From positions 1,200,001 through 1,232,000 of the forward strand of contig NC_013849.1 of NCBI RefSeq assembly GCF_000025505.1: a DNA stretch of 32,000 bases, read 5' to 3'. A program made the position numbers and the translations under genes. A model generated the notes under the pieces. The model did no database searches. It saw only the letters and a list, made by a program, of their open reading frames with translations, and was not told the origin of the DNA. This document shows positions 8,483-24,365 of the stretch, one piece after another; positions within the stretch are counted from its first letter, which is position 1, and every line of letters begins with the position of its first letter. The DNA comes from Ferroglobus placidus DSM 10642. GTDB taxonomy: Archaea; Halobacteriota; Archaeoglobi; Archaeoglobales; Archaeoglobaceae.

Positions 8483-8500
8483 AAAAAATTATAGATCGCA

Positions 8501-9079
8501 TCAGCTCTTAAGCTTTTTAGCAATACTCGCAACCCTCTTTCCTAAAAGCCTGGCAACCTCCAAATCCTCTTCTCTTGGCTTTCCGGTTGAGGTCGCTCCG
8601 TAATAGCTTCCGGCTTTGTAGAGCTCTTTTACTGGAGGAATTCCTACTATAATCATTCCGTGCCCCAAAAGCGGGAGAATCATCGTCAGCAATGTTGCTT
8701 CCTTACCTCCGTGAGGCATTTCGTTCGAAGTGAACACCGCTCCGACTTTCCCCTCGAGTTTTCTGCCCATCCACAACTTTCCTGTCATGTCGATGAACTG
8801 CTTCATCTGAGAAGACATTACGCCAAACCTCGTGGGAGAACCGAAAATTATCGCATCGTACTCTTCAAGCTCTTCGGGATTGGCAACCTCAAAACTTTTA
8901 AGTTCATCCTTTACAGCTCTATATCCGGGATTTTTCTCTAAAATTTCTTCTGGAATCGTTTCCGGCACTCTTTTGACGACCACATCCACCCCTTCTTCTC
9001 TTGCCCCCTCCGCAACCGCTTTAGCGAGCTCCATCGTGTTTCCGGTAATGGAGTGAAAGACTACGAGAATTTTGGTCAT
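8501..9079 (-). CDS. Flavodoxin-fold NAD(P)H:quinone oxidoreductase (WrbA-like)
   Basis: MTKILVVFHSITGNTMELAKAVAEGA flavodoxin-like N-terminus, FGSPTRFG and HGGKEAT motifs. Confidence 0.8.
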   Translation of the reverse strand: MTKILVVFHSITGNTMELAKAVAEGAREEGVDVVVKRVPETIPEEILEKNPGYRAVKDELKSFEVANPEELEEYDAIIFGSPTRFGVMSSQMKQFIDMTGKLWMGRKLEGKVGAVFTSNEMPHGGKEATLLTMILPLLGHGMIIVGIPPVKELYKAGSYYGATSTGKPREEDLEVARLLGKRVASIAKKLKS

Positions 9080-9188
9080 AATTTAGGAGTATCCGTTAAA
9101 CTTCTTAAACTTTTTCGTACAAAATTTGAAATTTGAAGCCGAATTAGAGGGAAAGGGATATTTACTTAAATTTTAAAAACAATAAATT

Positions 9189-9638
9189 ATGATGGAGGAG
9201 ATAAGAAAACTTTACGAGAAGTTTGGCGGAGAGGTTAAGGAGTTTGAGAAGTTCGAGGGAGAAGTTGACGTCGGTTACAAAATCGAGTTCGAGAAGAAAA
9301 TAGAGGACGTGGACGTTCACTTCTTCGGTCTCGCTTCCGGAGATTTGAATCCGATTCACTTCGACGAAGAGGTTGCTTCGAAGACGAAGTTTAAGGGAAG
9401 AGTCGTCCACGGAATGCTCACCACAAGCTTAGTTTCGGCAGCCGTAGCAAGAATGCCGGGGATAGTAGTTCTGCTCGAAGCCTGCTTCAAATATACGAAG
9501 CCGGTGAGGATCGGCGACACCGTTAAAGTTGTTGGAGAAGTTGTTGAAAAAGAGAAGAATAGATACAAACTCGATGTAAAATGCTTCGTAGGTGAAAACG
9601 TCGTGGCTGAGGGTTACGCAAAAGTTTTGCTCTGGTAA
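9189..9638 (+). CDS. MaoC-like (R)-specific enoyl-CoA hydratase (PhaJ-type hot-dog fold)
   Basis: FFGLASGDLNPIHFDEEVASKTKFKGRVVHGMLTTSL aligns with the PhaJ/MaoC active-site segment (D..H..HG). 149 aa. Confidence 0.85.
   Translation: MMEEIRKLYEKFGGEVKEFEKFEGEVDVGYKIEFEKKIEDVDVHFFGLASGDLNPIHFDEEVASKTKFKGRVVHGMLTTSLVSAAVARMPGIVVLLEACFKYTKPVRIGDTVKVVGEVVEKEKNRYKLDVKCFVGENVVAEGYAKVLLW
9276..9637 (+). repeat. Direct repeat copy 1 (3' 362 nt of the maoC gene)
   Basis: By manual base-by-base comparison it is identical to 17951-18312, at an offset of 8675 bp. Confidence 0.9.
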
Positions 9639-9680
9639 ATTATACCGAAAAATATTTATACCAAAACCGTTTAATGCCAA

Positions 9681-9962
9681 TTGATGGTAATGGTTCCGGA
9701 GTACTTCAAGGAGTTCCAGGAGTTCTGGAACGAGATGGTGAAAAACCAGAGGGAGCTCGTAAAGAACTTACTTTCCTCTTTCGAGTTCCTCTCGAAATTC
9801 AACATTCTAAGGAAGGATGTAGCCGTGTTCAGAGCTAAAGTCCAGAGTGGGGGAAGAATTTCGATTCCCGAGGCTGATAGGCAAGCTTTGGGGATAAAGG
9901 AGGGAGATTTGGTAAAGGTAATCGTAATAAAGGAGGAAGGAGGTGATTGGAATGGAATTTAA
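9681..9962 (+). CDS. AbrB/SpoVT-domain DNA-binding protein (PhaR-like regulator candidate)
   Basis: C-terminal GRISIPEADRQALGIKEGDLVKVIVI is an AbrB-type motif. It sits directly upstream of, and overlaps, a phasin-like gene, as in haloarchaeal phaRP. The start may be the ATG at 9684 or 9690. Confidence 0.6.
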   Translation: MMVMVPEYFKEFQEFWNEMVKNQRELVKNLLSSFEFLSKFNILRKDVAVFRAKVQSGGRISIPEADRQALGIKEGDLVKVIVIKEEGGDWNGI

Positions 9963-10263
9963 GGACTTTTTGGAGAACGTGAAGGCTTTCTACAAGATGG
10001 GTTTCGTCGTTAGCAAAACGAGCGTCGATCTCGTGAAGGTTGCGATGGACAGCTACGTAGGTTTGTACGAAGTATATCTAAGACAGATCGTTCCGAGCGA
10101 AATATACGAGAACGTCAAGAAGGCCCTTCAGCTCTACACGGAATCTCAGGCGAAGGTTTTCGAGAACTTCAAGAAGCTTCTCGACCAGCTCGAAAAGCAG
10201 CAGGACGAGATATTTGCGAGAATGGCTGAGCTCGGGAAAGCTGCGACTGGCGAGAAGAAGTAA
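9952..10263 (+). CDS. Small helical phasin-like protein (PhaP candidate)
   Basis: 103 aa, predicted all-helical and amphipathic. GGAGGTGA lies 5 nt upstream of the ATG. The call rests on context (PhaR-like upstream, PhaEC nearby), with no strong motif. Confidence 0.45.
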   Translation: MEFKDFLENVKAFYKMGFVVSKTSVDLVKVAMDSYVGLYEVYLRQIVPSEIYENVKKALQLYTESQAKVFENFKKLLDQLEKQQDEIFARMAELGKAATGEKK

Positions 10264-10274
10264 CTCCAATTTTT

Positions 10275-10844
10275 TTATTTTTTAACGGCTATTAAGTCGA
10301 AGAAAAGAACATTCTTTTCGAAATGAATTACTTCAAAAAAATCTCCAACAAACTTCGCTATCGAGTCCGGTTTTGGAAAGTTCTCAATCGCTCTTTTAAT
10401 TTTCTCGGCGTAGGCTTTACTTATATTCTCCTCAAGACATCTGAGAGTCACGTTTTTCACGATTTCGGGCATTTCCGAATTTAAATCCCTGATTGCCAGA
10501 GCCCCTCCTTCTTTTAAACATCCTCGAGCTTCAAGAATGGTAGGAAGACCGACGTCGTGGAGGGAATAGCTGAAAGTGATTAGGTCGAACGCTTCGCTTT
10601 TAAAAGGCAGCTTTCTCGCATCTCCCAGAACGGCGTTGGACATTTTGCAGAAATCCTTGTTAACGTCTATTCCGTAAATTTCGGCTTTATCGAAAACTCT
10701 TGATAGTTCATCGATAAGAATTCCGCTTCCGCATTCAACGTCCAAAATCTTCTTCGCATCCGCGAGCTTAGCTATTTTCAAAACGAACGCTCTGTAAAGA
10801 AGTCTGAATTTTTCAGCCCACTCGGAATATCTGCAACTTTCCAC
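10275..10844 (-). CDS. Class I SAM-dependent methyltransferase
   Basis: Motif I is ILDVECGSGILIDEL, followed by post-I IYGIDVN and motif II-like FDLITFSYSLHD. Confidence 0.8.
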   Translation of the reverse strand: MESCRYSEWAEKFRLLYRAFVLKIAKLADAKKILDVECGSGILIDELSRVFDKAEIYGIDVNKDFCKMSNAVLGDARKLPFKSEAFDLITFSYSLHDVGLPTILEARGCLKEGGALAIRDLNSEMPEIVKNVTLRCLEENISKAYAEKIKRAIENFPKPDSIAKFVGDFFEVIHFEKNVLFFDLIAVKK

Positions 10845-10879
10845 AAAATTTACATAGTCTTTTTTAAGATATTACAGTT

Positions 10880-11389
10880 ATGGTAGAAGAATTCTGGAGA
10901 ACTTATAAAAAACTCTTCGAGCTGTACGCAAAGCTTTCCGATCCGCGAACGTACTTCGGCGAGCTAACGGAAGAAGAAATTAACGAATCGCTATCCAAAA
11001 TCTTCAACGGCTTCGCAAAGTTGGGCAACCTGAACCTCAACTACTTAATCGAGCTCTACGGAAATGTTTTGAAAGGAAACCCCGAAGAGGTTTTGAAAAC
11101 TAATTTGGATTACCTCGAAAAATTAGAGGACACGATAGCGGAAATTGTCGACAACCCCCTCTATTCGGCTTACATAAACTTCGTGGACAGAGTCTTCCTG
11201 AACTACCTGATAACGCTTCAGAATATCAACAACGCCATCTTCCACAGCATCGGAATTCCGACGAGAAGGGACATCGTGGCTTTATCTGAAGCTTACGTCG
11301 ATCTTAAAGGGGATTTGAAAAAGGAGTTCAGAGCTCTCAAAAAGGAGATCGAGGAGTTGAAAGCGGCAATAGGAGGTGAGAAAAAATGA
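10880..11389 (+). CDS. PHA synthase subunit PhaE-like (short form)
   Basis: 169 aa, overlapping the downstream phaC by 4 nt. The C-terminal IGIPTRRDIVALSEAYVDLKGDLKKEFRALKKEIEELK resembles the PhaE C-terminal P-T-R-x-D plus coiled-coil segment. Confidence 0.55.
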   Translation: MVEEFWRTYKKLFELYAKLSDPRTYFGELTEEEINESLSKIFNGFAKLGNLNLNYLIELYGNVLKGNPEEVLKTNLDYLEKLEDTIAEIVDNPLYSAYINFVDRVFLNYLITLQNINNAIFHSIGIPTRRDIVALSEAYVDLKGDLKKEFRALKKEIEELKAAIGGEKK

Positions 11390-12498
11390 TTTACTACGCT
11401 ATTAGTGAATACTTGAGAAACGTTAGGAGGTTTGCTTCTCTCTACGAGTGGTTCATCGAAAACAGAAATTTCATTCTGCCGGATGAGGACACTCCCTATC
11501 TTATCCCGGACGTCGAAGTGGGAGTTACGCCGAAGGTGGAAATATACAGCGATAACGGAGTTAAGCTTTACAGATACATGCCGAGGACGGAAAAACAGTA
11601 CGAAACTCCTCTTCTCATAGTTTACGCCCTCATCAACAAGCCCTACATTTTAGACCTTCATCCGGAGAGGAGCGTCGTGAGGAAATTCCTCGACGCGGGT
11701 TTCGACGTTTACCTGATAAAGTGGGGGGACGCCACTATAGCTGATCAGTTCGGACTTTCTGGGTACATTGACATCTTCATGTACGACTTCATAGAATACC
11801 TCAAAGATTACGCTGGAGTCGAAAAGATCTCCATCCTCGGCTACTGCATGGGAGGGGGACTTTCGGCAATCTACACCTCGCTATACCCGGAAAACGTTAA
11901 AAACTTGCTGCTGCTTGCCGCGACGCTTTACTTCGATAAAGAAGTAGGAGGACTCGTCACGCTATCCGACAAGAGGTTTTTCGATCCGGAAGAAATTGCG
12001 AAGGTTTACGCGTACATTCCAGCTTGGTTCATGGCTGAGAGGTTCAAACTGCTCAGACCTCTCGAAAACTACTTCACAAAGTACGTTTCCATGTTCCTAA
12101 ACGCCGAAAACAAGGACTTTCTCGATCTGTTCTTCAGAATGGAGAAGTGGATTCACGACGGAGTAAATGTTGCCCCTTACGTTTACGTCGAATACGTAAG
12201 AGAGCTTTATCAGAACAACGCTTTGTGCGAGGGGAAGCTCTTCATAAACGGGAAAAAGGTCGATCCGAAGAGAATAGACATGCCGGTGGCGGCGATAGTA
12301 GGGAAGAGGGATCATTTGGCTCCTCCGAAAAACACCCTCGGATTTCTGGATTACATATCGAGTAAAGATAAAGCGGTATTCGAAGCTGATGCTGGGCACG
12401 TCGGTCTCGTCGTTTCTGGAAAAGCGATGAAAATGTGGGATGAAGTAGTTAAATGGCTTTCGAAGAGAAGCGGTAAAAAAGTTGAGAGAAAAATTTAA
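11386..12498 (+). CDS. phaC: Class III poly(R)-hydroxyalkanoate synthase catalytic subunit PhaC (copy 1)
   Basis: PLLIVYALINKPYILDL, lipase-box-like ILGYCMGGG (catalytic Cys), RMEKWIHD, GKRDHLAPP (Asp) and AGHVGLVVSGKA (His). It is collinear with my recollection of Allochromatium class III PhaC. Confidence 0.85.
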   Translation: MIYYAISEYLRNVRRFASLYEWFIENRNFILPDEDTPYLIPDVEVGVTPKVEIYSDNGVKLYRYMPRTEKQYETPLLIVYALINKPYILDLHPERSVVRKFLDAGFDVYLIKWGDATIADQFGLSGYIDIFMYDFIEYLKDYAGVEKISILGYCMGGGLSAIYTSLYPENVKNLLLLAATLYFDKEVGGLVTLSDKRFFDPEEIAKVYAYIPAWFMAERFKLLRPLENYFTKYVSMFLNAENKDFLDLFFRMEKWIHDGVNVAPYVYVEYVRELYQNNALCEGKLFINGKKVDPKRIDMPVAAIVGKRDHLAPPKNTLGFLDYISSKDKAVFEADAGHVGLVVSGKAMKMWDEVVKWLSKRSGKKVERKI

Positions 12499-12503
12499 TT
12501 TTT

Positions 12504-13490
12504 TTATTTCGACCTCTCGACTATCCACTTAACAGCTTCCGGCCACAGCTTTTTGTGAGCACTTCTGCTTACAGTCAAGCCTATGTGCCCTTTGTCGACC
12601 GTCAGCATCTTTTTGTCCTTCGAGGGGATTTTTTCGAAGAAGGGTATAACGGCTTCTGGAGGAGTTATGTGATCTTTTTCGGCAACTAAAGCCAGCACGG
12701 GCATTGTAATTTTGCTGAAATCAACTTTAACTCCGTTTACATCGTACTCTCCTTTCATGAGTTCGTTTCTGTGATACCATCTCGTGATGTACTCTTCGAA
12801 AACGTCTCCGGGAACTGAGGGAGAATCGAATATCCAGAACTCCATGTAGAAGAAGTCCTTAACGAACTTTTCATCGCTTAGATTATCAAGCAGAGACTGA
12901 TACTTTCCGACAGCCAATCTTACCGGATCAACGAGCAAGAAAGCCAAATTCAAAAAGTCTCCGGTGGCGTTGAATAAAGCTCTCGAAACTTTTTTCGGGT
13001 CTATGTTCTTAGCCCAGATTGCTAAAGTGTTCGACGTGTCGAAGTTTATTGGGGGAGTTTGAATAACGAGATTTCTCACCTTTTCCGGATGAAGGGAAGC
13101 GTAAATCACCGCCAAAGTCGTTCCGAGGCAGTAGCCGTGCAGAGTTACGTTTTCAACCCCCCTCTCTTTCCTTACAAAATCGACGCAGAAGTCGAGAAAG
13201 TCGATGTAGTCGGATATTTTTAAGTGTCTGTCAGCGAAGCTCGGATATCCCCAGTCTATCATCCAAACGTCCAATCCGGCTTCTATCAAAAGTCTTACAA
13301 CGCTGACATCCTTATGTAAATCGAGAATGTACGGACGATTTATGTAAGCGTAGCTTATAATTACCGGCGTTTTCAGCTTGGGCTTCGACTTGAAGTGGAG
13401 CAGCTTGAAAACCCAGTCTTCGTGTGCAACTTCGTACTCGCAGTAACCGGGTTTAGTCCCCTTTATCTTCTCCACCAACATCTCCAACAC
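12504..13490 (-). CDS. phaC: Class III PHA synthase PhaC paralog (copy 2)
   Basis: PVIISYAYINRPYILDL, LHGYCLGTT, YMEFWIFDSP, AEKDHITPP and KGHIGLTVS. It is convergent with copy 1, with 5 bp between the stop codons. Confidence 0.85.
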   Translation of the reverse strand: MLEMLVEKIKGTKPGYCEYEVAHEDWVFKLLHFKSKPKLKTPVIISYAYINRPYILDLHKDVSVVRLLIEAGLDVWMIDWGYPSFADRHLKISDYIDFLDFCVDFVRKERGVENVTLHGYCLGTTLAVIYASLHPEKVRNLVIQTPPINFDTSNTLAIWAKNIDPKKVSRALFNATGDFLNLAFLLVDPVRLAVGKYQSLLDNLSDEKFVKDFFYMEFWIFDSPSVPGDVFEEYITRWYHRNELMKGEYDVNGVKVDFSKITMPVLALVAEKDHITPPEAVIPFFEKIPSKDKKMLTVDKGHIGLTVSRSAHKKLWPEAVKWIVERSK

Positions 13491-14397
13491 CCCCCATTCT
13501 TTCTATTCTCTTCTCCAACTCTCTTATCTTCCTCCTCAGCTCGTAAATCCTTTTAAAAGCTTCATCCATTAGTGAGATGGTAGCAAACGGGTTTAAAGGG
13601 TTGCTCATGGCCAATTCTTCGTAGAAAGATCTCGCGTTGTATATGTAGTCCATCAAACTGTCGAGCATCGCTTTTTGCGTTTTCAGGTAATCCTCACTTC
13701 TCAAAAGCTCGTCGAAAATCCTAGCTTCTTCCTCGAAAAACGCGTTGGCGAATTCGTTGTAGCTATCGAATTTTTTGCTGTTAGCCTTGTCTATAAAAGA
13801 TTGGGCACCCTTAACGTACGAGCTCTTCACGAGCTCCCTGAACTTCCTGAAAGCCGAGCTAAATTCTCTAAGGTTTTCCAAAGCGCTTTCAAACCTCAAA
13901 AATACGCTTTTAGGCAGCAGGAAGGGAAACTCCGTTGACAAATCTATTCTCATGAATTCGCTTCTGAACCTACTCATCCTCTCCCTGTAAATTTCCACGA
14001 ATCTTTCGAGAACGTCCTTTTCAGCCTTCGGAAGCACGTATCCAGCGTACAAGCTTGCCGTCAATCTTACGTGGTCGTAGAGAGATCTAAGAAATTCGGT
14101 GTAGGCGTTTAAAAGCTCCGCCTGAGCTTCAAACAAGCTGATGAATTCTACCCTCGGGAACATGAACTCAAGCTGCCTTCCTCCGTAAACGGCAACCTCG
14201 AGAGGTCTGAAGAAGAACCTGAAGAACTCTTCAAAAATTCTTTCAAACTCCTCTCCGTAACTCAGCTTAATTCCGGCTTCGTGTCTTTTATACAAATCCT
14301 CGAGAATCCTTCTTATTCTGATGTTTCTCAAAAGGAGTTCGAAGGACTCCTTCGGAGCAGTTCTAAATAGCTCCACAAGCTCTTCTTCGCCGATCAT
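13453..14397 (-). CDS. PhaE-like partner subunit (long form) of PhaC copy 2
   Basis: About 314 aa, helical, overlapping the phaC2 start. The C-terminal NPFATISLMDEAFKRIYELRRKIRELEKRIE is PhaE-like. I prefer the ATG at 14397, which has GAGGTGG upstream, over the GTG at 14415. Confidence 0.5.
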   Translation of the reverse strand: MIGEEELVELFRTAPKESFELLLRNIRIRRILEDLYKRHEAGIKLSYGEEFERIFEEFFRFFFRPLEVAVYGGRQLEFMFPRVEFISLFEAQAELLNAYTEFLRSLYDHVRLTASLYAGYVLPKAEKDVLERFVEIYRERMSRFRSEFMRIDLSTEFPFLLPKSVFLRFESALENLREFSSAFRKFRELVKSSYVKGAQSFIDKANSKKFDSYNEFANAFFEEEARIFDELLRSEDYLKTQKAMLDSLMDYIYNARSFYEELAMSNPLNPFATISLMDEAFKRIYELRRKIRELEKRIERMGGVGDVGGEDKGD

Positions 14398-14506
14398 CTT
14401 CCCACCTCTCCACACTATCCATTTTTATTATTAATAATGTAAAAATTTTTTGGTAGGTTTCGGTTTTCGGAAAAACACTTTAAAAGAATCGCGGAGAGAA
14501 TGGGTT

Positions 14507-15535
14507 ATGAAAGTGTCCATTCTTGGAGCTGGAGCGATGGGGTCTGCTTTAACGATTCCACTTGCGGACAACGGGAACGAAATTCTCCTCTGGGGGACGG
14601 AATACGATGTAGATATTCTGAAAAAAATTGAAAAAGGAGAGGAGCATCCGAGAATTGGCGTAAAGCTTCCGGAAGTACAAATTCTTTATCCGAAGGAGCT
14701 GAAAAAAGCACTCGATGCGGACATAATAGTTCTTGCGGTGAGCACCGAAGGAGTGATGAACGTATTTAATAGAATAAAAAACGAAGTATCGGATTCTATT
14801 TTGATAACGATAGCGAAGGGGCTTATAGAGGAGGAAGACCACGTCTACACGATTCCAGAGGCAATATGGAAGGAGAACGTGAAGATGAGGCACAAACTCG
14901 TAGCGATAACCGGACCATCCATAGCCAAAGAAGTGGCAAGAAGAGCTCCTACGAGAGTCGTTTTCAGCAGCAAAAATCTGAAAACAGCTAAGAAGGCTAT
15001 GAAAGCATTCAAAACTAAATACTACGGAATAGAAATCACCGACGACATAATAGGAGCCGAGCTCACCTCAGCTTTAAAAAACGTTTATTCGATAGCTATT
15101 TCCTGGATAAGAGGTTACGAAGAAAGGTTTGAAATGGATTTGAGCAACGCTAAAGGAGTGCTCGCGACGATGGCGATAAACGAAATAGCGATATTCGTCG
15201 AGGACGCTGGAGGCAGGAAAGAGACAGCTTACGGCTTATCCGGATTCGGAGACCTCATAGCAACTTTTAGGGGTGGAAGAAACGGGATGCTCGGAGAACT
15301 GCTCGGAAAAGGTTACACAATAGACGAAGCTTTAAAAGAGCTCGAAATGAGGGGTGTTGGTGTTATAGAGGGATACGTGAACGGAAGAAGAGCTTACGCT
15401 TTACTAAAACAGCTTGAAATGAGAGGAAAAGCTTCAGAAGATGATTTTCCTCTTTTAAAAGCGATATACAGTGTTTTGTACGAAGGTAAAAAAGTGGAAG
15501 ACGTTTTGATGAATTTGCTCATCGAAGGCGGCTAA
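14507..15535 (+). CDS. gpsA: NAD(P)H-dependent glycerol-3-phosphate dehydrogenase (GpsA family)
   Basis: MKVSILGAGAMGSALTIPLA Rossmann motif, with GPSIAKEV and AELTSALKNVYSIA segments typical of GpsA. I prefer the ATG at 14507 over the TTG at 14450. Confidence 0.8.
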   Translation: MKVSILGAGAMGSALTIPLADNGNEILLWGTEYDVDILKKIEKGEEHPRIGVKLPEVQILYPKELKKALDADIIVLAVSTEGVMNVFNRIKNEVSDSILITIAKGLIEEEDHVYTIPEAIWKENVKMRHKLVAITGPSIAKEVARRAPTRVVFSSKNLKTAKKAMKAFKTKYYGIEITDDIIGAELTSALKNVYSIAISWIRGYEERFEMDLSNAKGVLATMAINEIAIFVEDAGGRKETAYGLSGFGDLIATFRGGRNGMLGELLGKGYTIDEALKELEMRGVGVIEGYVNGRRAYALLKQLEMRGKASEDDFPLLKAIYSVLYEGKKVEDVLMNLLIEGG

Positions 15536-17271
15536 ATTTTACTCACAATTTCTTTGTAGTAGTCCAAAGCCTCTTTGACGTAATCTCTGCTCAGCTTTCC
15601 TTGCGGAGTGTCGGCTTCGAAAACTCTTTCCGGAACCTGCAAATCCTCCACGCTGAAACCCATCTTCTTTTTCAGCCTGAGCTTTTCCTCGTAAATCTTC
15701 TTTCCGATTTCCCTAAGCTCGTTCTCGTCTGTTTCAACTCCGAGAGGTTTGAACGCTTTCACGACAATTTCCGGCTTGTAAATGCCTCTTGCGAAGAAGC
15801 AAACTACCAGGCTCGAAAGAATCTGTCTCCACTGCTCCTCCCTTATAAGCTCGTCGACGAGCTCCTTCGGCGAGTAGTCCTTCCACTTCTGATCTATGGA
15901 GTAGCCGGCTCCGTCCAAGTGGCTGTGCCTCAAACCGATTAAGTAGCCTATGTAAGCTCCGTATCCGGTGTTGTAGCCGGGCATTTCATTTCTACCGAAA
16001 GCCATCGCAAACTCCCTCCCTCCGTAAATCCTTGAAGCTTCGTCAACTCCCTTAGCTAAAGCTTTGTAGAAGTCGTTCGGCTGAGAGACGATGTAATCCA
16101 CAGCTTTAATGTAATTCTCGTAATTTCCGAATTCGAGGTCTAAGAGAGTTTCGTTTTTGCTTATCAGTCCCCTCTTGTAAGCTTCGGTAGCCCAAGCCAG
16201 GCAAACTCCGGTGCTTATCGCATCAAGCCCGTAAACCTCAACTCTGTGTATAAGCTTCAGCAATCCTTCTCTGCTTCCTACTCCGAGCATCGAGCCTAAA
16301 GCGTAGATCAGTTCGTAATCGTAGCTTATCATCAGAGTTTTGTAGAAGTACTTTTCAGTTTCGTATTCTTCCCTCAACGCTGCTATGTGAATGCAAGCTA
16401 CCGGACAGTGAGCGCAGGCAATTCTCCTTCCGAGATTGTTTTCAGCTAAAGCCTCACCGCTTATCTCCTCAGCTTTATCGAACCTCTGCTCCGTAAGATT
16501 TTTCGTAGGCAATCCTCCGAACTCGTTTAGAGGAAGGACGTTTACTGCTGTTCCGAGCAGATGGTACTTCTTCATAGCATCGGACTTCACTGCCAAATCG
16601 TATATTTCGTCGTAAACTTTTCTGAAATTCTCTTTATCTTTCGGCTTGAAAGACTTCCTCCCCATAACAACAAGAGCTTTCAAGTTCTTGCTTCCAAAGA
16701 CCGCCCCTAAACCAAGCCTTCCGAAGTGCCTGTAGGTTTCGGTCGTAACGCAGGCGTATCGCACCAAATTCAATCCTCCGCCACCTATTCTCATCACCGT
16801 TCTAATCCCTCTCCCCTTCTCCCTCTCAGCAATAATCCTTCCAGTCACTATCGAGTCCTGAATGCTCCAAATAACCCTTCCATCCCTGAAATGAACTTTA
16901 TCTTCATCTACAACCACGTAAACCGGTTTTCTGCTCCTTCCCTTAATCACAATAGCTCCGTAGCCAGCGTTAGCTATGGCTGCCGCACTCCTACCTCCAG
17001 CGTGAGATTCTCCGAGGTTGCTGGTTAAAGGACTTTTGAACAGGGCGACGGTTTTTGAGGCGAGAGGGTAAGCTGGCGTAAAAGGACCGGTGGAAAAAAC
17101 TATCACGTTCTCTTCACCCAGCGGATCTACCCCTTTAGCGTTTTCAAGTTCCTCCTTTAAAAGCTGAACGGCAACACCAACTCCCCCGATGTACTCCTCG
17201 AAGAGGTCTTTTCTGTCCTCAACCCAATACTTGTACCTCGAAAGGTCTATCGTCAAAACTTTACTCCTCAC
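15532..17271 (-). CDS. aor: Tungsten-containing aldehyde:ferredoxin oxidoreductase family protein
   Basis: 579 aa with an AOR N-terminal domain (IDLS...YIGGVGVAVQLL). It also has the GESHAGG motif and the CAHCPVAC 4Fe-4S ligand cluster. Confidence 0.9.
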   Translation of the reverse strand: MRSKVLTIDLSRYKYWVEDRKDLFEEYIGGVGVAVQLLKEELENAKGVDPLGEENVIVFSTGPFTPAYPLASKTVALFKSPLTSNLGESHAGGRSAAAIANAGYGAIVIKGRSRKPVYVVVDEDKVHFRDGRVIWSIQDSIVTGRIIAEREKGRGIRTVMRIGGGGLNLVRYACVTTETYRHFGRLGLGAVFGSKNLKALVVMGRKSFKPKDKENFRKVYDEIYDLAVKSDAMKKYHLLGTAVNVLPLNEFGGLPTKNLTEQRFDKAEEISGEALAENNLGRRIACAHCPVACIHIAALREEYETEKYFYKTLMISYDYELIYALGSMLGVGSREGLLKLIHRVEVYGLDAISTGVCLAWATEAYKRGLISKNETLLDLEFGNYENYIKAVDYIVSQPNDFYKALAKGVDEASRIYGGREFAMAFGRNEMPGYNTGYGAYIGYLIGLRHSHLDGAGYSIDQKWKDYSPKELVDELIREEQWRQILSSLVVCFFARGIYKPEIVVKAFKPLGVETDENELREIGKKIYEEKLRLKKKMGFSVEDLQVPERVFEADTPQGKLSRDYVKEALDYYKEIVSKI

Positions 17272-17678
17272 GATTTCACCTCCTCGTAAGCTAAAACTCC
17301 GTGGGGGCAGTAATTAGCGCAATATCCGCAGTGAACGCAAACAGCTGGCTTTCCGTTCTCTTGCCTGAAAATAGCTCCGATAGTGCAAGCTTCCATGCAG
17401 TTTCCGCAGGCTATGCACAAATCCTCCTTAAAGAAGACTCCTCCTCCCTTTCTCGGTGTCATTGCTCCCGTCGGACAAACCTGAGCACAAGGCGGCTCGC
17501 TGCAAGCCCTGCAGAATATTATCGTTGCACCCCTTTCAAATCCGCTCAAGCTTACGGCTAAAATTCCCGATTTACTCACTCCAATTTCTGGATCTCTTGC
17601 ATTTCTTCTACTGCACGCGTACATGCAAAGCCCACAACCGACGCACTTTTCCAAGTCTTTTATCACGAGTCTTTTCAT
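17268..17678 (-). CDS. 4Fe-4S polyferredoxin-like protein, upstream partner of AOR
   Basis: Four Cys clusters: CVGCGLCMYAC, CRACSEPPCAQVCP, CIACGNCMEAC and CVHCGYCANYCP. It overlaps aor by 4 nt. Confidence 0.85.
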   Translation of the reverse strand: MKRLVIKDLEKCVGCGLCMYACSRRNARDPEIGVSKSGILAVSLSGFERGATIIFCRACSEPPCAQVCPTGAMTPRKGGGVFFKEDLCIACGNCMEACTIGAIFRQENGKPAVCVHCGYCANYCPHGVLAYEEVKS

Positions 17679-17730
17679 AACGAAATTATAACTTATTCAG
17701 CTCAGATAAATTCGTTTCGATGATAGGTTT

Positions 17731-17779
17731 AAAATCTATCACGATTTGTTACCCACACACCCCTTTGTTTCCTGTGGAA
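17731..17779 (-). repeat. 49-bp element, copy A
   Basis: The minus strand reads ttccacaggaaacaaaggggtgtgtgggtaacaaatcgtgatagatttt. It matches 27968-28016 on the plus strand at 47/49 positions. It lies 52 nt upstream of the ferredoxin/AOR operon start. Confidence 0.85.
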
Positions 17780-17937
17780 GCACACCAGCTTTGCCATGCT
17801 TTAAACCAATCACAAAAAAAAGACGTTAGATGTTTGATTTTTAACTTTCCAGTGAAGAAATTAACAATTTTAGCTTTATCTAACTTTAAATTCGTTTTTA
17901 CTTTCCACCAGAAATTCAATCCGAAAACAGTTATCTA

Positions 17938-18313
17938 CGTTGACATCAGCTACAAAATCGAGTTCGAGAAGAAAATAGAGGACGTGGACGTTCACTTCTT
18001 CGGTCTCGCTTCCGGAGATTTGAATCCGATTCACTTCGACGAAGAGGTTGCTTCGAAGACGAAGTTTAAGGGAAGAGTCGTCCACGGAATGCTCACCACA
18101 AGCTTAGTTTCGGCAGCCGTAGCAAGAATGCCGGGGATAGTAGTTCTGCTCGAAGCCTGCTTCAAATATACGAAGCCGGTGAGGATCGGCGACACCGTTA
18201 AAGTTGTTGGAGAAGTTGTTGAAAAAGAGAAGAATAGATACAAACTCGATGTAAAATGCTTCGTAGGTGAAAACGTCGTGGCTGAGGGTTACGCAAAAGT
18301 TTTGCTCTGGTAG
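17938..18313 (+). pseudogene. 5'-truncated second copy of the MaoC/PhaJ gene
   Basis: Codons for YKIEF...KVLLW are nucleotide-identical to 9276-9637. The native N-terminal ~29 codons and start are missing. The ORF-track 197-aa ORF (17720-18313) extends only through AT-rich non-homologous sequence that contains the 49-bp repeat. Function via an alternative start cannot be excluded. Confidence 0.6.
17951..18312 (+). repeat. Direct repeat copy 2
   Basis: Identical to 9276-9637. Identity stops at the third base of the stop codon (TAA vs TAG). Confidence 0.9.
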
Positions 18314-18401
18314 ATTTAAGGTATTCGTTACCCTCCACCTTCAACGACACTCTTTTTCTCTGAGCAGACAGCTCGCTATTTTACAAATTCGACTGAAAGT
18401 A

Positions 18402-18474
18402 CGCCCCGGCCGGGATTCGAACCCGGGTCGAGGGTTCCGGAGACCCTCAGGATGTCCGCCTACCCCACCGGGGC
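18402..18474 (-). tRNA. tRNA-Arg (anticodon CCG)
   Basis: I folded it by hand. Acceptor GCCCCGG/CCGGGGC, anticodon stem AGGGT/ACCCT with loop CTCCGGA, T arm CCGGG-TTCGAAT-CCCGG and discriminator G. 73 nt, with no encoded CCA. Confidence 0.85.
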
Positions 18475-18622
18475 TGTAGTTATTCCTACCTCCTCATTAT
18501 TTCAGAATTTCTCTGCGAATGATACTTTATGAATTTTTACACAATCACGCGTTTTGAATTGCGTTATTATCTGGAGTTACTTGCAATCCGTGGAGAAAAT
18601 TTTTTATCGAAAACTTTGAAAA

Positions 18623-20878
18623 TTGAAGTTTGTGAAAGAAGACGCTCTCTCCCCGGTCGTCGGATTCATATTAATCATCCAGATCCTGATAATTTTTCTC
18701 ACTCTCGTGCAGACAGTTTTCATACCCGACCATCTCAAAAAAATTGAGGCTGATAATGTTGAAAAGCTAAGAGGAGAGGTCGAAAAGTTTTCAGCCCTTG
18801 CATCGTCCGGAGAAAGGGCTTACATGCTCGTAACTCTTCCAGACTATCCAGAATACCTTTTTCTTTTAACTCCCGAGCCAGCTGGCTCTTCAATTTACGC
18901 CGAGGAATTCAACATAACTCTAAAGTACACCGAGGTTCTTCCGAACGGAACTAAAGTGGACGTTTTGAAAAATTTGAAGAGTAGCAGAATTTACGTTAGG
19001 GTGGAGAACTACTACTATCCCGACGTCACTTTCATCTTCGAAAACGGAGCGATTTTTCAAAAGCAGGACAAGGCGATAGTTGCTGTTGGAGATCAAGCTC
19101 TAATTAACTCTGAAATTAAACTAACGATTCTAAAAGGCAACTTATCTTTAGCCTACAACACACCGAAAGAGATAGCTTTTCAACTGGTTTCCACGGGAGG
19201 ATTCGTTTACGGAGAGAACATTTCGATAACCTTCGAAAGCGTGAACCCAGATTTCTGGAGAAAATACGGAAGCGTGAGCGGAAATATCGTGACGATTAAC
19301 GCTTCGAGCGGAGTGATTAGGATAAACGTTTACGCTTTCGAAGGAGAAAGCGTTAGCAGAAAACCCTACAGACTCCTCAAACTCAATCCCTTCGACGAAT
19401 ATACAGTTGCGAAGGGAGACGTAAAGGAGTTCGGCGTAATTCTTCTGGACAGATTTAACAACCCGGTTGTTGGAGAGACCGTCAATGTTAGCGTTACCGG
19501 AGGAATTGGGACTGTAGACGGTTTACCATCGATAAGCAAGGTAACTGATTCTGCCGGAAGAGTTTACGTGAGTTTCAAAGCTACGAGCTCTGGAGAAGGC
19601 ACTGTTACGTTTGAAGTAGGAAATCTGAGCGCATCTTACTCCATAAAAGTCGTCGCTCCGCAAGTTTCTGGAGCTTCTCTGATCAACGTGGAGTGGTTGA
19701 ACAAAGCGAACCTCGAAAGTCCCTGGGATGCTTATTTGGAGGGAAGAAGAGTTTTAAGCGTAAAAGTTTACGATCAGGACTTACAGCCAATTCCAGACAT
19801 CGATGTAAAATTCGTTGTGACGAACTCTTCTGTCGTAGAATTAAATGCAACTGTTGCGAGAACGAATTCGAGCGGTATTGCAAGTGTAGAGGCTTATCCT
19901 TTAGCCAACGGAACCACCAAGGTTTACGCATTTGCTGGAGACGCTGGAGACGTTCTGAATCTAACAATCATAAACGTAACGAGACCTCCCTGGGTTTACC
20001 CCGGCTGGAAGTACAGAGTCCCAATTTACGTCGAGGAGCTTTCAGGAAACGACCTCATCGATTACCAAATTCTCGTTACGCTCGACGCAAGCTTCAACTG
20101 GAGTCATGCCAAATCTGATGGTTCAGATATTAGGTTTGCTGACAAGAATGGAAATCCAATCCCGTACTGGATTGAAAGCTGGAATTATGGTTCATCCGCA
20201 AAAATCTGGGTGAAGCTGAATATAACTGCTAACGAGAATAAAACAATTTACATGTATTATGGAAATGCAAGTGCCACGAGTGAGAGTGACGGTGATAACG
20301 TTTTTGACTTCTTCGACGATTTTACCACTACAAATTTGAACACCTCTAAATGGACAGTTGTTGACCAAATTCCTAGTATCCAACACTCAATACTCATACT
20401 TACTGGCGGTGACAGTATTGATGCTATTAAAACTCTTAAAAGCTTTAGTCCGCCCATTGCTATTCACTACTATCTAGCTCCATCAGAAACAAGTGGTGAC
20501 TGGGATACTGGAATAGGATTCGGCAAATCTCGAAACAATATGTTAAGATTTACTGATGATACTATAAGTTCTTGGAGAAATTATTTAACAATTCATTACA
20601 AGGGTTGGTGGTCAGACACTATTGAAATACAAACTCCAAGATCTGACTATACAACATTTCACGAGTATCAAGTAATAGTTACAAATAGTGGATCGATATT
20701 TAAGGATCTGACTGATGAAAGGGGGAATCCTTCCCAGTACTCTCTGAACAATGGAAACATTTGGCTCGTTTCAGATAATGATAATTCGGGAAATCAGGGA
20801 TTGTTTGACTGGATCTTTGTTAGAAAATACGTAAATCCAGAACCAAAAGTAACAATCGGTCAAGAAGAGAAATATTAG
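18623..20878 (+). CDS. Large secreted/surface protein with a type IV pilin-like (class III) signal peptide, Ig-like repeats and a DUF2341 + LamG/ConA-like C-terminus
   Basis: N-terminus MKFVKEDALSPVVGFILIIQILIIFLTLV resembles the archaeal Pilin_N signature (xAVSPVIGVILMV). The middle has Big-like segments (VNVSVTGGIGTVDG...VTDSAGRVYVSFKATSSGEGTVTFEV). DUF2341-like: YRVPIYV...DGSDIRFADKNGNPIPYWIESW...AKIWVKLN...IYMYYGN. I count about 18 N-X-S/T sequons. The start is TTG 18623 or GTG 18632. Confidence 0.75.
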   Translation: MKFVKEDALSPVVGFILIIQILIIFLTLVQTVFIPDHLKKIEADNVEKLRGEVEKFSALASSGERAYMLVTLPDYPEYLFLLTPEPAGSSIYAEEFNITLKYTEVLPNGTKVDVLKNLKSSRIYVRVENYYYPDVTFIFENGAIFQKQDKAIVAVGDQALINSEIKLTILKGNLSLAYNTPKEIAFQLVSTGGFVYGENISITFESVNPDFWRKYGSVSGNIVTINASSGVIRINVYAFEGESVSRKPYRLLKLNPFDEYTVAKGDVKEFGVILLDRFNNPVVGETVNVSVTGGIGTVDGLPSISKVTDSAGRVYVSFKATSSGEGTVTFEVGNLSASYSIKVVAPQVSGASLINVEWLNKANLESPWDAYLEGRRVLSVKVYDQDLQPIPDIDVKFVVTNSSVVELNATVARTNSSGIASVEAYPLANGTTKVYAFAGDAGDVLNLTIINVTRPPWVYPGWKYRVPIYVEELSGNDLIDYQILVTLDASFNWSHAKSDGSDIRFADKNGNPIPYWIESWNYGSSAKIWVKLNITANENKTIYMYYGNASATSESDGDNVFDFFDDFTTTNLNTSKWTVVDQIPSIQHSILILTGGDSIDAIKTLKSFSPPIAIHYYLAPSETSGDWDTGIGFGKSRNNMLRFTDDTISSWRNYLTIHYKGWWSDTIEIQTPRSDYTTFHEYQVIVTNSGSIFKDLTDERGNPSQYSLNNGNIWLVSDNDNSGNQGLFDWIFVRKYVNPEPKVTIGQEEKY

Positions 20879-20886
20879 GTGAGAAC

Positions 20887-21243
20887 GTGGAATTTCTAAA
20901 AAAGAATGCGAAGAAGTTTCTGGAAAAAGCTGAGGAAAGCTTTGAAAAGGGAGAATACAATTTCGTAATGTTTTTCGTTGAACAGTTCTTTCAGTTGATT
21001 TTGAAGTTTCTTATTGCTAAAAAGTTTGGTGAATTTCCGAAAACGCACAATTTCAAGATTCTTTTCGAACTAACGGAGGATGAAACCCTAATGAAATTTT
21101 ACCGAGAAAATCTTGATCTGCTGAGGGAGATAGAGTTGTCGTACGTAGCTTCTCGATGTTTCGATGTCGAGTACTCTAAAAACGTAGCCGAAAGGAGTTT
21201 AAACCTTGCAAAAACGTTTTTAAGGGTGATAAAAGTTGATTAA
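20887..21243 (+). CDS. HEPN domain protein (toxin-type component of a HEPN/MNT pair)
   Basis: 118 aa, helical. GEFPKTHNFKILF and YVASRCFDVEY correspond to the conserved HEPN (PF05168-type) segments. GTG start with AGGTGA upstream. Confidence 0.7.
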   Translation: MEFLKKNAKKFLEKAEESFEKGEYNFVMFFVEQFFQLILKFLIAKKFGEFPKTHNFKILFELTEDETLMKFYRENLDLLREIELSYVASRCFDVEYSKNVAERSLNLAKTFLRVIKVD

Positions 21244-21571
21244 AAAGTACTTCGAAGTGCTTAAAAAAAATAGAGAGCTTTTCGAGAAAGCAGATGAAAT
21301 TGCGAGAGAGGTGAAGGAGAGGGCGAAAAAGTTGTTTGATGATTGCGAAGTATACATAGTTGGAAGTTATGCGAAAAAGGAGTTCACGTTGTCTTCCGAT
21401 CTCGACATCCTAATCGTTTCGAGCAAAATTCCCGAAAAGTTCAGCTTCGAATGGTATTCCGAAATTGTAAAGTCCCTTACCGACGACAACCGAATAAATA
21501 TTCATCTCGTTAGCAGGAAAAAGTTCGACAACTTAAAAAGTCTTTACCGACCGAGAATTCCGGTAGATTAA
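21236..21571 (+). CDS. Minimal nucleotidyltransferase (MNT), partner of the HEPN protein
   Basis: VYIVGSYAKKEFTLSSDLDILIVS is the GS...(D/S)DxD pol-beta NTase motif. It overlaps the HEPN gene by 8 nt. Confidence 0.8.
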   Translation: MIKKYFEVLKKNRELFEKADEIAREVKERAKKLFDDCEVYIVGSYAKKEFTLSSDLDILIVSSKIPEKFSFEWYSEIVKSLTDDNRINIHLVSRKKFDNLKSLYRPRIPVD

Positions 21572-21711
21572 AAGAAAGTTTCAGGTTTGTTGGAAATACT
21601 GTCGAGAGCTTAAGTAAATCAAGCCAATTTTTTTACCACGCAAAAATTTGCCAGAGAACTCGTTTTGAAGAAGAAAAACGTTTTAAATTACCTTAACGCT
21701 AACCTAAAAAC

Positions 21712-23409
21712 ATGAGCGAGATCATGGAAATGCTCGTCAGAAGAGGCTTTCTCTGGCAGTCTTTCGAAATCTACGGAGGAATGGCGGGTTTCATCGATTA
21801 CGGTCCTTTAGGAAATGCGGTAAGAAGAAAACTCGAAAACCTTTGGAGAAAGTACTTCGTTATCAACGAAAGGAGCGTTGAAATAGACACGCCGACGATA
21901 GGTGTCGAAGAGGTTTTCATAGCTTCCGGGCATGCAGAAGGTTTTACGGACGTTGCCATCGAATGCGAAAGCTGTGGGAGGGTTTTCCGAGCGGATCACT
22001 ACATAAAGGAGAAGCTGAACATCGAAGTTGATCCGACGATAGAGAGGGTTTGGGACGTTATCGTTGAATTCAACTTGAAGTGCGAGTGCGGTGGAAACTT
22101 CAAAAAACCTTTCCACTTCAACCTAATGTTCGAAACGAAAATTGGTCCCGGAAAAGGTAAAAAAGGTTATCTCCGCCCGGAAACGGCGCAGGGAATTTTC
22201 ATAGCATTCAAAAGACTTTCGAACTACTTTAGAGACAAGTTGCCCTTCGGCGTTGCTCAGATTGGAAGAGCTTACAGAAACGAGATTAGTCCGAGACAAG
22301 GGGTAATAAGGCTGAGAGAGTTCAATCAGGCGGAATTAGAGTTTTTCTGCCATCCGGGAGAGAAAAAACACCCGGAGTTTTACAAGTACGCCAACGATGT
22401 CGTCACTCTCGTGGACAAGTTCGATAAAGAACATAGAGTTACGTTGAAGGAAGCTGTTGAGAGGGGTATAATAGCTCACGAGCTTTTAGCGTACTTTATT
22501 GGAAAAACGAGAAGATTTCTCCTCGAAGCCGGAGTTAAGGACGAGAAGCTCCGCTTCAGACAGCACAAGGATGATGAGAGAGCCCATTATGCCGTAGATT
22601 GCTGGGACGCTGAAGCTTTAACGTCTTACGGCTGGGTTGAAATTGTGGGAATCGCTGACAGAAGCGACTATGACTTAAGTAGACATACGAAGTTCAGCGG
22701 CGAAGATTTGAGCGTTTTCGTTCCGTTTAAGGAGCCAATAAAAGTAAAGAGGAAGAAAGTCGTTCCGAATTTGGCTAAACTCGGACCGGTTTACAAGGAC
22801 AAAGCTAAAAAGATAGCCGAAGAGCTTGAGAAAATAGAAAACGCTGGAGACGAGATCGAAGTTGTAGTTGACGGAGAGAAGATAAAGCTCTCCAAAGAGT
22901 TCTACGAGGTAAAGGAAGTTGAAGAGGAGGTGCACGGAGAGAGGATAATACCGCACGTTGTAGAGCCTTCGTTCGGATTGGACAGAATTACCTACGTCTT
23001 GCTCGAGCACGCCTTCGATAAAGATGTGGTTGACGGAGAGGAGAGGAGAGTGCTGAGACTGAAGAGATGGATGGCTCCGATAGACGTGGCTGTGCTACCC
23101 CTCCTTTCGAGAGAAGAGTTCCAGAAAAAGGCTCTGGAAATCGTGGAAATGCTGAGAGAAAACGGAATTTACACCGAATACGACGATTCCGGAAGTATAG
23201 GAAGGAGGTACAGAAGATTCGACGAAGTAGGAGTTCCTTTCTGCGTTACCGTGGATCATCAAACTTTTGAAGACGATACGGTGACTATAAGGGACAGGGA
23301 CACGACGAAGCAGGTGAGAGTTAAAGTAGAAGAGCTCGTAGGGGTTCTGAAGGAATTGCTTAACAGCGAAAAGAGCATAGAAGAGTTTGGCGAAATTTTC
23401 AAAGCTTAA
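21712..23409 (+). CDS. glyS: Glycine--tRNA ligase (archaeal/eukaryotic dimeric type)
   Basis: 565 aa with FEIYGGMAGFIDYGPLG, YLRPETAQGIF, GRAYRNEISPR and EPSFGLDRI class II motifs. Confidence 0.9.
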   Translation: MSEIMEMLVRRGFLWQSFEIYGGMAGFIDYGPLGNAVRRKLENLWRKYFVINERSVEIDTPTIGVEEVFIASGHAEGFTDVAIECESCGRVFRADHYIKEKLNIEVDPTIERVWDVIVEFNLKCECGGNFKKPFHFNLMFETKIGPGKGKKGYLRPETAQGIFIAFKRLSNYFRDKLPFGVAQIGRAYRNEISPRQGVIRLREFNQAELEFFCHPGEKKHPEFYKYANDVVTLVDKFDKEHRVTLKEAVERGIIAHELLAYFIGKTRRFLLEAGVKDEKLRFRQHKDDERAHYAVDCWDAEALTSYGWVEIVGIADRSDYDLSRHTKFSGEDLSVFVPFKEPIKVKRKKVVPNLAKLGPVYKDKAKKIAEELEKIENAGDEIEVVVDGEKIKLSKEFYEVKEVEEEVHGERIIPHVVEPSFGLDRITYVLLEHAFDKDVVDGEERRVLRLKRWMAPIDVAVLPLLSREEFQKKALEIVEMLRENGIYTEYDDSGSIGRRYRRFDEVGVPFCVTVDHQTFEDDTVTIRDRDTTKQVRVKVEELVGVLKELLNSEKSIEEFGEIFKA

Positions 23410-23813
23410 GAACTTCTCAGCTTTTTTAACCTCTCGCTCAACTCAACAATTTCGTTGAGAATTGAAATGATTTCCTCCATTTCTCTCAAGCTGTCGGCTT
23501 TGACGAGCTTTTCTGAAAGCTTCTTCATAACCTCCGTCAAATTTTCCTCGACGTAATCGAAATTTGCATTAAACCTCGCTTTCGTAGGCACTTCTTCCGC
23601 AATTTTTTCGACGACCTTCTCCGTTTCTTCCTTAATCTCTCCGATTTTTTTCACGTGATTCTCCACGATCTCGTACTCCACTTTACATCCAGGGCAGAAA
23701 GTCTTACCTTCGTGCTTGAACAAAGGCAATCCACAATCTTGGCAGTGAAACTGAAGCATTTTCGCTCCTTTGTAGAGAAGTTCAGCTGCTTCCGAAATTT
23801 TTTTATCCTCCAT
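23406..23813 (-). CDS. UPF0148 / autoantigen-p27-like zinc-ribbon protein
   Basis: MEDKKISEAAELLYKGAKMLQFHCQDCGLPLFKHEGKTFCPGC matches the family N-terminus. I prefer the ATG at 23813 to the ORF-track start at 23912, which would overlap the divergent gene. Confidence 0.7.
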   Translation of the reverse strand: MEDKKISEAAELLYKGAKMLQFHCQDCGLPLFKHEGKTFCPGCKVEYEIVENHVKKIGEIKEETEKVVEKIAEEVPTKARFNANFDYVEENLTEVMKKLSEKLVKADSLREMEEIISILNEIVELSERLKKLRSS

Positions 23814-23861
23814 GGGTTTATTAGCGAACAAAGTGTAAATTTCTTTTTCGGAGGTGATGAT

Positions 23862-24113: not shown

Positions 24114-24158
24114 TTTTTTATCCCGCTTTTTCTCTCCAAGTTTGATAAATTTTCAATT

Positions 24159-24182
24159 ACTTAACTCTTCGAAGAGCTAAGT
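24159..24182. promoter_or_regulatory. 24-bp near-perfect palindrome in the flaI-like upstream region
   Basis: acttaactcttc|gaagagctaagt has one mismatch between its arms. It is followed at 24191-24205 by a 5-bp stem hairpin (agtct-tttta-agact). Confidence 0.35.
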
Positions 24183-24365
24183 TAGTTTACAGTCTTTTTA
24201 AGACTCTGCTCGATTAACGATCGGCGGACACTTCAAACGAGCCTGTTCGGAACTCTTTTAGGCTTTCCCCCTCACGAACATGAAGGAATTTAATCCGATG
24301 GCAATGTTTCTGGACTTGTTCAGGAAACGATAACTTTTTAGTGGTAGCAATAGATTTTTAAATCG

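Follow-up and report, generated by a model that had tools for sequence, protein, structure and literature searches.

A 362-bp direct repeat in Ferroglobus placidus probably reflects gene conversion between an intact and a truncated maoC paralogue

A 32,000-nucleotide (nt) window of the genome of Ferroglobus placidus DSM 10642 (NC_013849.1, positions 1,200,001 to 1,232,000; positions below are those of the window unless a contig is named) holds two copies of most of a maoC gene, which encodes a MaoC/PhaJ-type (R)-hydratase. The copies are identical over 362 bp and lie in the same orientation, and between them are found a set of polyhydroxyalkanoate (PHA) genes, gpsA and the genes for AOR and a ferredoxin (Fdx). 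This arrangement raises the question of whether the repeat is the scar of an inserted circular DNA, the outcome of gene conversion between two older paralogues or an artefact of assembly, the three readings offered by an earlier note that had been made from the sequence alone. Here we report that gene conversion is the probable explanation, that the downstream copy is an established maoC locus of the genus that has lost its 5' end, and that the DNA between the copies is not one inserted unit. We found no account in the literature of these genes, or of rearrangement of the PHA cluster in F. placidus; the process itself is well known, and the locus is a new instance of it with nothing categorically new.

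Base-by-base comparison, with which a repeat search agrees, bears out the identity, orientation and offset (8675 bp) that had been given for the exact 362-nt direct repeat (Table 1). The tract sits inside a longer homology of 378 nt (9264-9641 against 17939-18316) that contains four mismatches in all, every one a transition. Three of these lie at the 5' edge (9270 G/A, 9273 G/A and 9275 T/C) and the fourth falls on the last base of the stop codon (9638 A against 18313 G), past which both copies share three more bases, ATT. The earlier note had rightly placed the end of identity at this base and seen a diverged 12-nt flank on the 5' side. Those 12 nt are in-frame maoC sequence in both copies, and nine of them match, for which the chance probability of nine or more is 4.5e-4. 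Mismatches are distributed as three in 12 positions at the 5' edge, one in four at the 3' edge and none in the 362 of the interior (P = 2.2e-6, from a small sample).

Over the same 362 nt, orthologues from L001 (Ferroglobus sp. S146_96), from L078 (an ENA contig nearly identical to it) and from L079 (an S009_18-type Ferroglobus) differ by 17-21% (63-77 differences), whereas the two copies differ at 0 positions; the divergence of the 5' edge at the downstream locus, by comparison, is at about the interspecies level. Gene conversion homogenises the interiors of paralogues and leaves their edges diverged, and the pattern of identity described here fits that behaviour. Since the match over the 12 nt of the 5' edge is significant and in frame with maoC, resident maoC sequence would already have stood at the downstream locus when the copies became identical. 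We consider it moderately probable that the 362-bp identity arose by gene conversion between old maoC paralogues, the second reading of the earlier note, for which the diverged 5' flank proved to be the key clue. The age of the paralogues, conversion as opposed to a fresh copy, and the direction of conversion are all matters that we infer, with conversion the most likely route to the identity.

The third reading, in which a mis-join or a duplicated consensus created the second copy, has next to no probability. The mean 454 read length of 292 nt is shorter than the repeat (PMC3236036), and de Bruijn unitigs do not by themselves fix which flanks join. However, Logan unitigs assembled from different sequencing runs match the window at 100% identity, and at each of the four sides they break off exactly 30 nt (k-1) into the repeat: L091 and L094 stop at 9305, L085 covers 17980 to 9608 and L097 extends from 18283 to 31442. 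On the wrbA side a further unitig (L092), from a 454 run, covers 185 nt of the repeat. Because the other unitigs break 30 nt inside it on each side, the raw data contain the repeat with four different flanks. Unitigs alone cannot prove the pairing of left with right flanks, but the assembly is a finished one that drew on a 15.5-kb paired-end 454 library, Dupfinisher and bridging PCR (PMC3236036), and no connectivity other than the published one retains both syntenic blocks of the relatives, from the radical SAM gene (rSAM) to gpsA and from Fdx through a 49-nt element, e, to DUF2341.

The identity of the downstream copy becomes apparent from its upstream DNA. L001, L078 and a third, 88%-diverged JGI contig (L098) each have a single full-length maoC (91% amino acid identity) in the order A-e-U-maoC, where A is a PF1765-like operon that is 85-87% identical at the nucleotide level to window 27965-31456, inverted, and U is the region directly upstream of maoC. 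By blastn, window 17732-17947 matches e-U of these relatives at 69-70% over 216-219 nt, with E-values of 8e-17 (L001), 1e-14 (L078) and 1.6e-19 (L098), and local alignment of e-U gives a score of 93 against a shuffle null of 24 ± 4 (z ~16). The multiple alignment is collinear as far as GTTATCTAC, after which ~98 nt are absent in F. placidus before it resumes at GT(T/G)GAC (GTTGAC); the deletion comprises the last 19 nt of the leader, the ATG and the first 25 codons. Because the DNA upstream of it is orthologous to the promoter region of the relatives' maoC, copy 2 is the genus-conserved maoC locus with a 5' deletion and not a displaced 3' fragment. What had been described as AT-rich sequence through which copy 2 could be opened is, by blastn and alignment, not arbitrary: it corresponds to the ancestral maoC promoter region.

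We designate the downstream gene maoC2 and the intact upstream gene maoC1. The N-terminus of the GenBank protein for maoC2, ADC65575, consists for its first 25 codons of former promoter DNA in translation. Copy 2 is without residues 1-25 of a conserved N-terminal extension and has Ser in place of Gly29, a residue invariant in all 47 aligned sequences. The extension is conserved across at least 40 archaeal homologues, with G13, G14 and K21 at 90% or more; it is modelled at pLDDT of at least 95 as a helix (residues 2-11) and an ordered loop, and is present in the crystal structure entry of AF1124 (PDB 2b3m). Of the two copies only the first has the extension together with Gly29, and maoC2 is probably a decaying copy, with ADC65575 a pseudogene or relic that we take from these features to be non-functional. 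On the other hand, the bacterial PhaJ structures 5cpg and 1iq6 align from residues 24-26 onwards, and copy 2 retains the whole of that aligned part together with the hydratase-2 motif SGDxNPxH and its catalytic Asp and His, so that some residual function may persist. That motif, in which G51, D52, P55 and H57 are invariant in 47 homologues, lies inside the repeat and hence in both copies, and both pass the PF01575 cut-off of 27 bits. In their MaoC_dehydratas domain and SGDxNPxH motif (D52, H57) the predicted products resemble the PhaJ/MaoC hydratases of PHA clusters (1iq6, 5cpg and AF1124, 2b3m). Bacterial PhaJ is without the ~25-residue N-terminal extension of the archaeal proteins, as is copy 2. 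As a separate observation, one and the same reading frame of U is open throughout both in L001 (3502-3735, where a 77-codon open reading frame (ORF) runs over the maoC start in a different frame) and in the window (17720-17950, fused in frame to copy 2), which may be due to chance or to a small upstream ORF.

The upstream copy, maoC1, aligns over its full length with PDB 2b3m (AF1124), and its AlphaFold model has a mean pLDDT of 97.5. An exact-protein look-up with maoC1 gave no match, and Logan unitigs break inside maoC. In other Archaeoglobi and allied metagenome-assembled genomes (L009, L011, L012, L080 and L100) the canonical gene order is phaE, phaC2 and maoC in one direction, then phaC and phaP in the other, a methyltransferase gene in the first direction, and a small ORF and abrB in the second. 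The canonical maoC position in L080 is 10001-10447, and L100 4015-4545 has no counterpart between window 12489 and 12511, where the site is empty (Table 1). With respect to L100, the amino acid identity of maoC1 (80.5%) is in line with that of phaC (85%) and phaC2 (82%), and because of this agreement the Ferroglobus maoC is taken as a descendant of the phaJ of the operon that has been relocated. The PhaJ/MaoC gene of most Archaeoglobi stands in a phaE-phaC-maoC operon, whereas that of Ferroglobus lies outside it, in four contexts: the L001 type, the L079 type and loci 1 and 2 of F. placidus. In each of the four, detectable homology ends ~3 nt after the maoC stop codon. A single inversion that moved maoC out of the operon was considered and rejected, the orientations of the neighbouring genes being unchanged. 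The PHA cluster, with two PhaC-like genes and PhaE, is widespread in Archaeoglobi and is also found in bins labelled Hadarchaeota and Desulfobacterales. We further note an indel of ~100 nt upstream of maoC between L002 (1840/1845) and L079 (2483/2584), contigs that are otherwise 99.7-100% identical.

Copy 2 has an older context in other genomes, namely the orthologous U of L001, L078 and L098; for copy 1 such a context is hinted at, indirectly, by the arrangement in L079, where maoC is followed by a convergent N-terminal remnant of phaE (residues 11-90, 66% identity over 80 amino acids, then a stop). The L079 layout may represent the F. placidus-like order of maoC, abrB and onward to phaE after an internal deletion, in which case the position of maoC1 beside phaE may be old. 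The remnant also suggests decay of the PHA cluster in the S009_18-type lineage.

These contexts bear on the possibility that the whole module was recently duplicated from the U locus into the wrbA-abrB spacer, with the 98-nt deletion and error-prone repair following in the original. Such a history would account for the three 5' mismatches, all transitions within 12 nt of the deletion junction, and maoC is missing from the canonical PHA site, so that the gene has indeed moved within the genus. However, the DNA upstream of copy 1 is at best ~54% identical to the U of copy 2 (a hand count on alignments, not a computed value), and because they are so little alike, if homologous at all, a recent duplication that included the promoter is disfavoured. 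A stretch upstream of maoC1 that is tentatively a remnant of ancestral promoter-proximal DNA (Table 1) aligns with the U of L001 at a score of 33 against a shuffle null of 21.3 ± 3.7 (z ~3). In addition, to judge from L079, the placing of maoC next to PHA genes is older than F. placidus, and the stop codon would have to have acquired a further point mutation. We regard this history as distinctly unlikely.

A second alternative, unlikely in our estimation but to be taken seriously, is a recent one-step partial duplication, in which template switching, either illegitimate or guided by microhomology, carried a piece of maoC1 of ~366 nt, from codon 30 to just past the stop, into an already truncated maoC2 locus, or the reverse; prolonged concerted evolution would then not be required. 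The boundaries of the repeat are sharp and identity reaches nearly to the end of homology, and the loss of homology ~3 nt after the stop in every Ferroglobus maoC context gives the ORF the appearance of a discrete module. Against this, the 12 nt on the 5' side are resident, in-frame maoC sequence with three mismatches, and replacement of a resident sequence by way of homology is gene conversion by definition; nor is a microhomology junction evident at 17951. The two processes are mechanistically close.

Gene conversion between old paralogues remains the explanation that we favour, and several observations weigh against it. The identical tract comes within 1-4 nt of the 3' end of homology and within 12 nt of the 5' end, and such short flanking homology is less than conversion tracts normally need, for which reason copy-and-paste fits slightly better on this point. 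The older divergence is read from 16 edge positions, and the four transitions could have arisen at the junction or as point mutations at a later time. A second genome carrying the two copies was looked for and not found; the argument from L079 draws on one short contig, and the likeness of the copy 1 upstream DNA to U is barely above the shuffle null. A comparison of 5' with 3' divergence in maoC1, as a test for a mosaic and for direction, gave no signal (87% against 82% to L001; 79% against 79% to L079).

The course of events that we favour would be as follows. F. placidus would have had two paralogous maoC loci, an intact maoC1 at the edge of the PHA block and maoC2 (~17939-18313) at the genus locus, of which the latter lost ~98 nt with the end of its leader, its start codon and its first 25 codons. 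A recent, non-reciprocal homologous recombination would have overwritten one copy with the other, and only the extreme edges of the homology would have escaped homogenisation and retained the older divergence. The copies are direct and 8.7 kb apart, not inverted and at a greater distance, owing to the orientation of a 10.2-kb segment between e and its counterpart e'. As in the conversion of dispersed prokaryotic paralogues such as tuf and the rRNA operons, identical copies stand against orthologues that are 17-21% diverged, and the tract of identity lies inside a slightly longer, diverged homology with unrelated flanks. The locus differs from those cases in that one partner is 5'-truncated and without its native start, so that a probable pseudogene has been kept fresh-looking, in that the tract nearly reaches the ends of the homology, and in that the event is inferred and not observed.

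The DNA between the copies (the bracket) can be compared with that of relatives. In window orientation the genes run wrbA(-), maoC1(+), an AbrB/MazE-like gene, a small ORF, a methyltransferase gene(-), a phasin-like ORF, phaC(+), phaC2(-), phaE(-), gpsA(+), AOR(-), Fdx(-) and repeat copy 2; Pfam scans of the ORFs bear out the gene content reported earlier, and the 88-bp spacing from copy 2 to tRNA-Arg was also correct. Three Ferroglobus contigs (L088, L089 and L090), in which AOR is 97-98% identical to that of the window, have in the same orientation a CDP-alcohol transferase gene, leuA, rSAM(-), a rhodanese gene(-), gpsA(+), AOR(-), Fdx(-), e, T2SSF(-) and T2SSE(-). At the nucleotide level they match the window up to 8486 and again from 14507, and in place of the intervening block (Table 1) they carry a 484-bp rhodanese region (L088 6988-7471). 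The seven PHA genes of that block are the abrB-like gene, the small ORF and the genes for methyltransferase, phasin-like protein, phaC, phaC2 and phaE. The right-hand 3.2 kb of the bracket, gpsA-AOR-Fdx, is conserved core synteny, and the variable block begins outside the bracket and takes in copy 1; for these two reasons the bracket is not one inserted unit. The rhodanese gene in the three close relatives encodes a rhodanese lipoprotein, and the tail of L095, a more distant contig, likewise has the look of a lipoprotein signal peptide and not of phaE. The variable block is of typical composition, with no repeats to be seen at its ends.

The first reading of the earlier note, in which a circle bearing a 3' maoC fragment and the PHA and AOR genes integrated in Campbell fashion and displaced the old 3' end, is highly improbable on this evidence. 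Direct repeats do flank a gene-rich segment near a tRNA gene, as in tRNA-associated islands with att repeats. However, gpsA-AOR-Fdx is collinear with rSAM and leuA in L088, L089 and L090, where the bracketed segment was not seen to be absent as a unit with its flanks joined; the sole variable block starts outside the bracket and includes copy 1; and the DNA upstream of copy 2 corresponds to an ancestral promoter region. Among the ORFs from 8501 to 21243, all of them scanned with Pfam, none gave an integrase or recombinase domain; the note had itself remarked on the lack of an integrase. Unlike the att repeats of such islands, this repeat lies within a gene, measures 362 bp and stands 88 nt clear of the tRNA, and the DNA that it brackets is partly core synteny with a composition typical of the window. 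Tests for foreign origin of the bracket or the variable block were negative, tetranucleotide correlation with the rest of the window being 0.955-0.958 (0.955 for the bracket) against 0.946 ± 0.010 for random 6-kb segments, and third-position GC content (GC3) in the bracket being similar to that of the flanks. The possibility raised in the note, that maoC directly abuts tRNA-Arg in relatives, was not borne out. ARAGORN gave no tRNA downstream of maoC in L001, L002, L078, L079 and L095, so that the adjacency is not shared, and the DNA downstream of maoC in relatives matches neither F. placidus flank. A search with Rfam returned only the two tRNAs and no match for the 49-nt element. An integrative element was accordingly rejected, in view of the lack of an integrase, a tRNA that is not overlapped, typical composition and a bracket that is in part core synteny.

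Although described in the earlier note as an unrelated 49-bp repeat, e turns out to be relevant, as it is one arm of an inverted repeat that spans a 10.2-kb segment. The element is ~81-96% conserved in every Ferroglobus-type contig that covers the region, far above the surrounding spacers, with further copies at L088 3682-3730, L001 3441-3489 and L095 2993-3039. Both the Fdx-AOR operon and the PF1765-like operon have it on their upstream side. It holds a TTCCnnnGGAA palindrome and is a putative shared operator or promoter-upstream element. In relatives the junctions are Fdx-e-T2SSF (L088, L089 and L090) and A-e-U-maoC (L001, L078 and L098), whereas F. placidus has the reciprocal pair, Fdx-e-U-maoC2 and T2SSF-e'-A, both of them inside independent unitigs (L085 and L097). 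Because the relatives carry exactly reciprocal junctions across e, recombination within e has left the 10.2-kb segment in opposite orientations in F. placidus and its nearest relatives. L095 (AOR 88% identical at the amino acid level) has Fdx-YHS-e-DUF2341(+), which is the F. placidus orientation, without U, maoC or tRNA, and the F. placidus orientation may be the older one. The bracketing by direct repeats is contingent on this inversion, since in the other orientation the maoC copies would be inverted repeats. As in other inversions between short inverted repeats, e and e' flank the segment and relatives carry reciprocal junctions; what differs is that the arms are only 49 nt long with two mismatches and are apparent promoter-upstream elements, not insertion sequences or rRNA genes. 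No invertase gene was seen for the 10.2-kb segment.

Three further observations may be recorded. At 20887-21571, between the genes for the DUF2341 surface protein and an aminoacyl-tRNA synthetase, lies a HEPN and nucleotidyltransferase (MNT-type) toxin-antitoxin pair, where the GC content of the window is at its lowest (0.35-0.39); because L095 has UPF0147 directly after DUF2341, the pair is an additional insertion in F. placidus. In L095 the ~390-nt spacer from e to DUF2341 (2604-2990) contains GC-rich, partly self-complementary stretches (e.g. CGGACGCGACCGCTCGCGAGACC) without a tRNA call, and may encode a structured RNA. An exact-protein look-up with the DUF2341 ORF from TTG 18623 gave no match; in L097 the start is called at GTG 18632 (748 amino acids).

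Table 1. Positions of the features discussed (window coordinates, except for the last row).
Feature	Position	Strand	Remarks
maoC1, 149-aa MaoC/PhaJ-type (R)-hydratase	9189..9638	+	intact ORF, ADC65564 (100%); PF01575 91 bits
Repeat copy 1	9276..9637	+	codons 30-149 plus stop-codon bases 1-2
Copy 1 diverged 5' edge	9264..9275	+	GTTGACGTCGGT, encodes VDVG
Repeat copy 2	17951..18312	+	exact match to copy 1
Copy 2 diverged 5' edge	17939..17950	+	GTTGACATCAGC, encodes VDIS; abuts ~98-nt deletion junction
Region U	17780..17938	+	orthologous to upstream (promoter) region of relatives' full-length maoC; ends in GTTATCTAC
Copy 2 ORF, 197 codons	17720-18313	+	PF01575 89.3 bits
maoC2 as annotated in GenBank	17852..18313	+	153 aa, ADC65575, GTG start 17852
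Possible remnant of ancestral maoC promoter-proximal DNA (tentative)	9124..9171	+	local alignment to L001 U
Empty canonical maoC site	12499..12503		5 nt between phaC and phaC2 stop codons
Variable 6.0-kb block	8487..14506		wrbA, maoC1, seven PHA genes; absent in L088, L089 and L090
gpsA(+), AOR(-), Fdx(-)	14507..17678		88% nt identical and collinear in L088, L089 and L090; also in L095, L096
Element e	17731..17779	+	49-nt conserved element, left inverted-repeat arm
Element e'	27968..28016	-	right arm, 96% identical to e (2 mismatches); just upstream of PF1765-like gene
Inverted segment, 10,188 bp	17780..27967		maoC2, tRNA-Arg, DUF2341, HEPN/NTase, aminoacyl-tRNA synthetase, T2SSE and T2SSF genes
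tRNA-Arg(CCG)	18402..18474	-	88 nt downstream of copy 2; no overlap with repeat
phaE remnant in L079	4209-4457 (L079)	-	convergent to maoC

Our analysis corrects the reading of this locus: what seems the scar of an integrative island is a pair of paralogues, of which one is truncated, that recombination has probably homogenised, and the PHA genes do not form one mobile unit with the AOR genes. For annotation, the 153-residue 'MaoC' protein ADC65575 should be flagged as probably a pseudogene or relic, its N-terminus being a translation of promoter DNA. The relocation of maoC, the exchange of a 6-kb PHA block for a rhodanese gene and the 10.2-kb inversion point to local plasticity in Ferroglobus. 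One could go further and regard maoC, from promoter to stop, as a movable cassette, found by now in at least four contexts, and the identical copies together with e and e' as a recombination switch that deletes, circularises (8.7 kb) or amplifies the PHA/gpsA/AOR block or flips the 10.2-kb segment; we think this very improbable, but if true such a switch would generate population-level variation in carbon storage and aldehyde metabolism. As the earlier note reasonably suggested, recombination between the two copies could delete 8.7 kb (8,675 bp), with loss of the PHA genes, gpsA, AOR and Fdx, and would leave wrbA, an intact maoC and tRNA-Arg, while unequal exchange between them would amplify the segment with PHA, gpsA, AOR and Fdx. 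Perfect direct repeats of 362 bp suffice for homologous recombination, and through them the PHA/gpsA/AOR region could plausibly be lost or amplified spontaneously in cultures, which would concern those who use the strain in physiological work.

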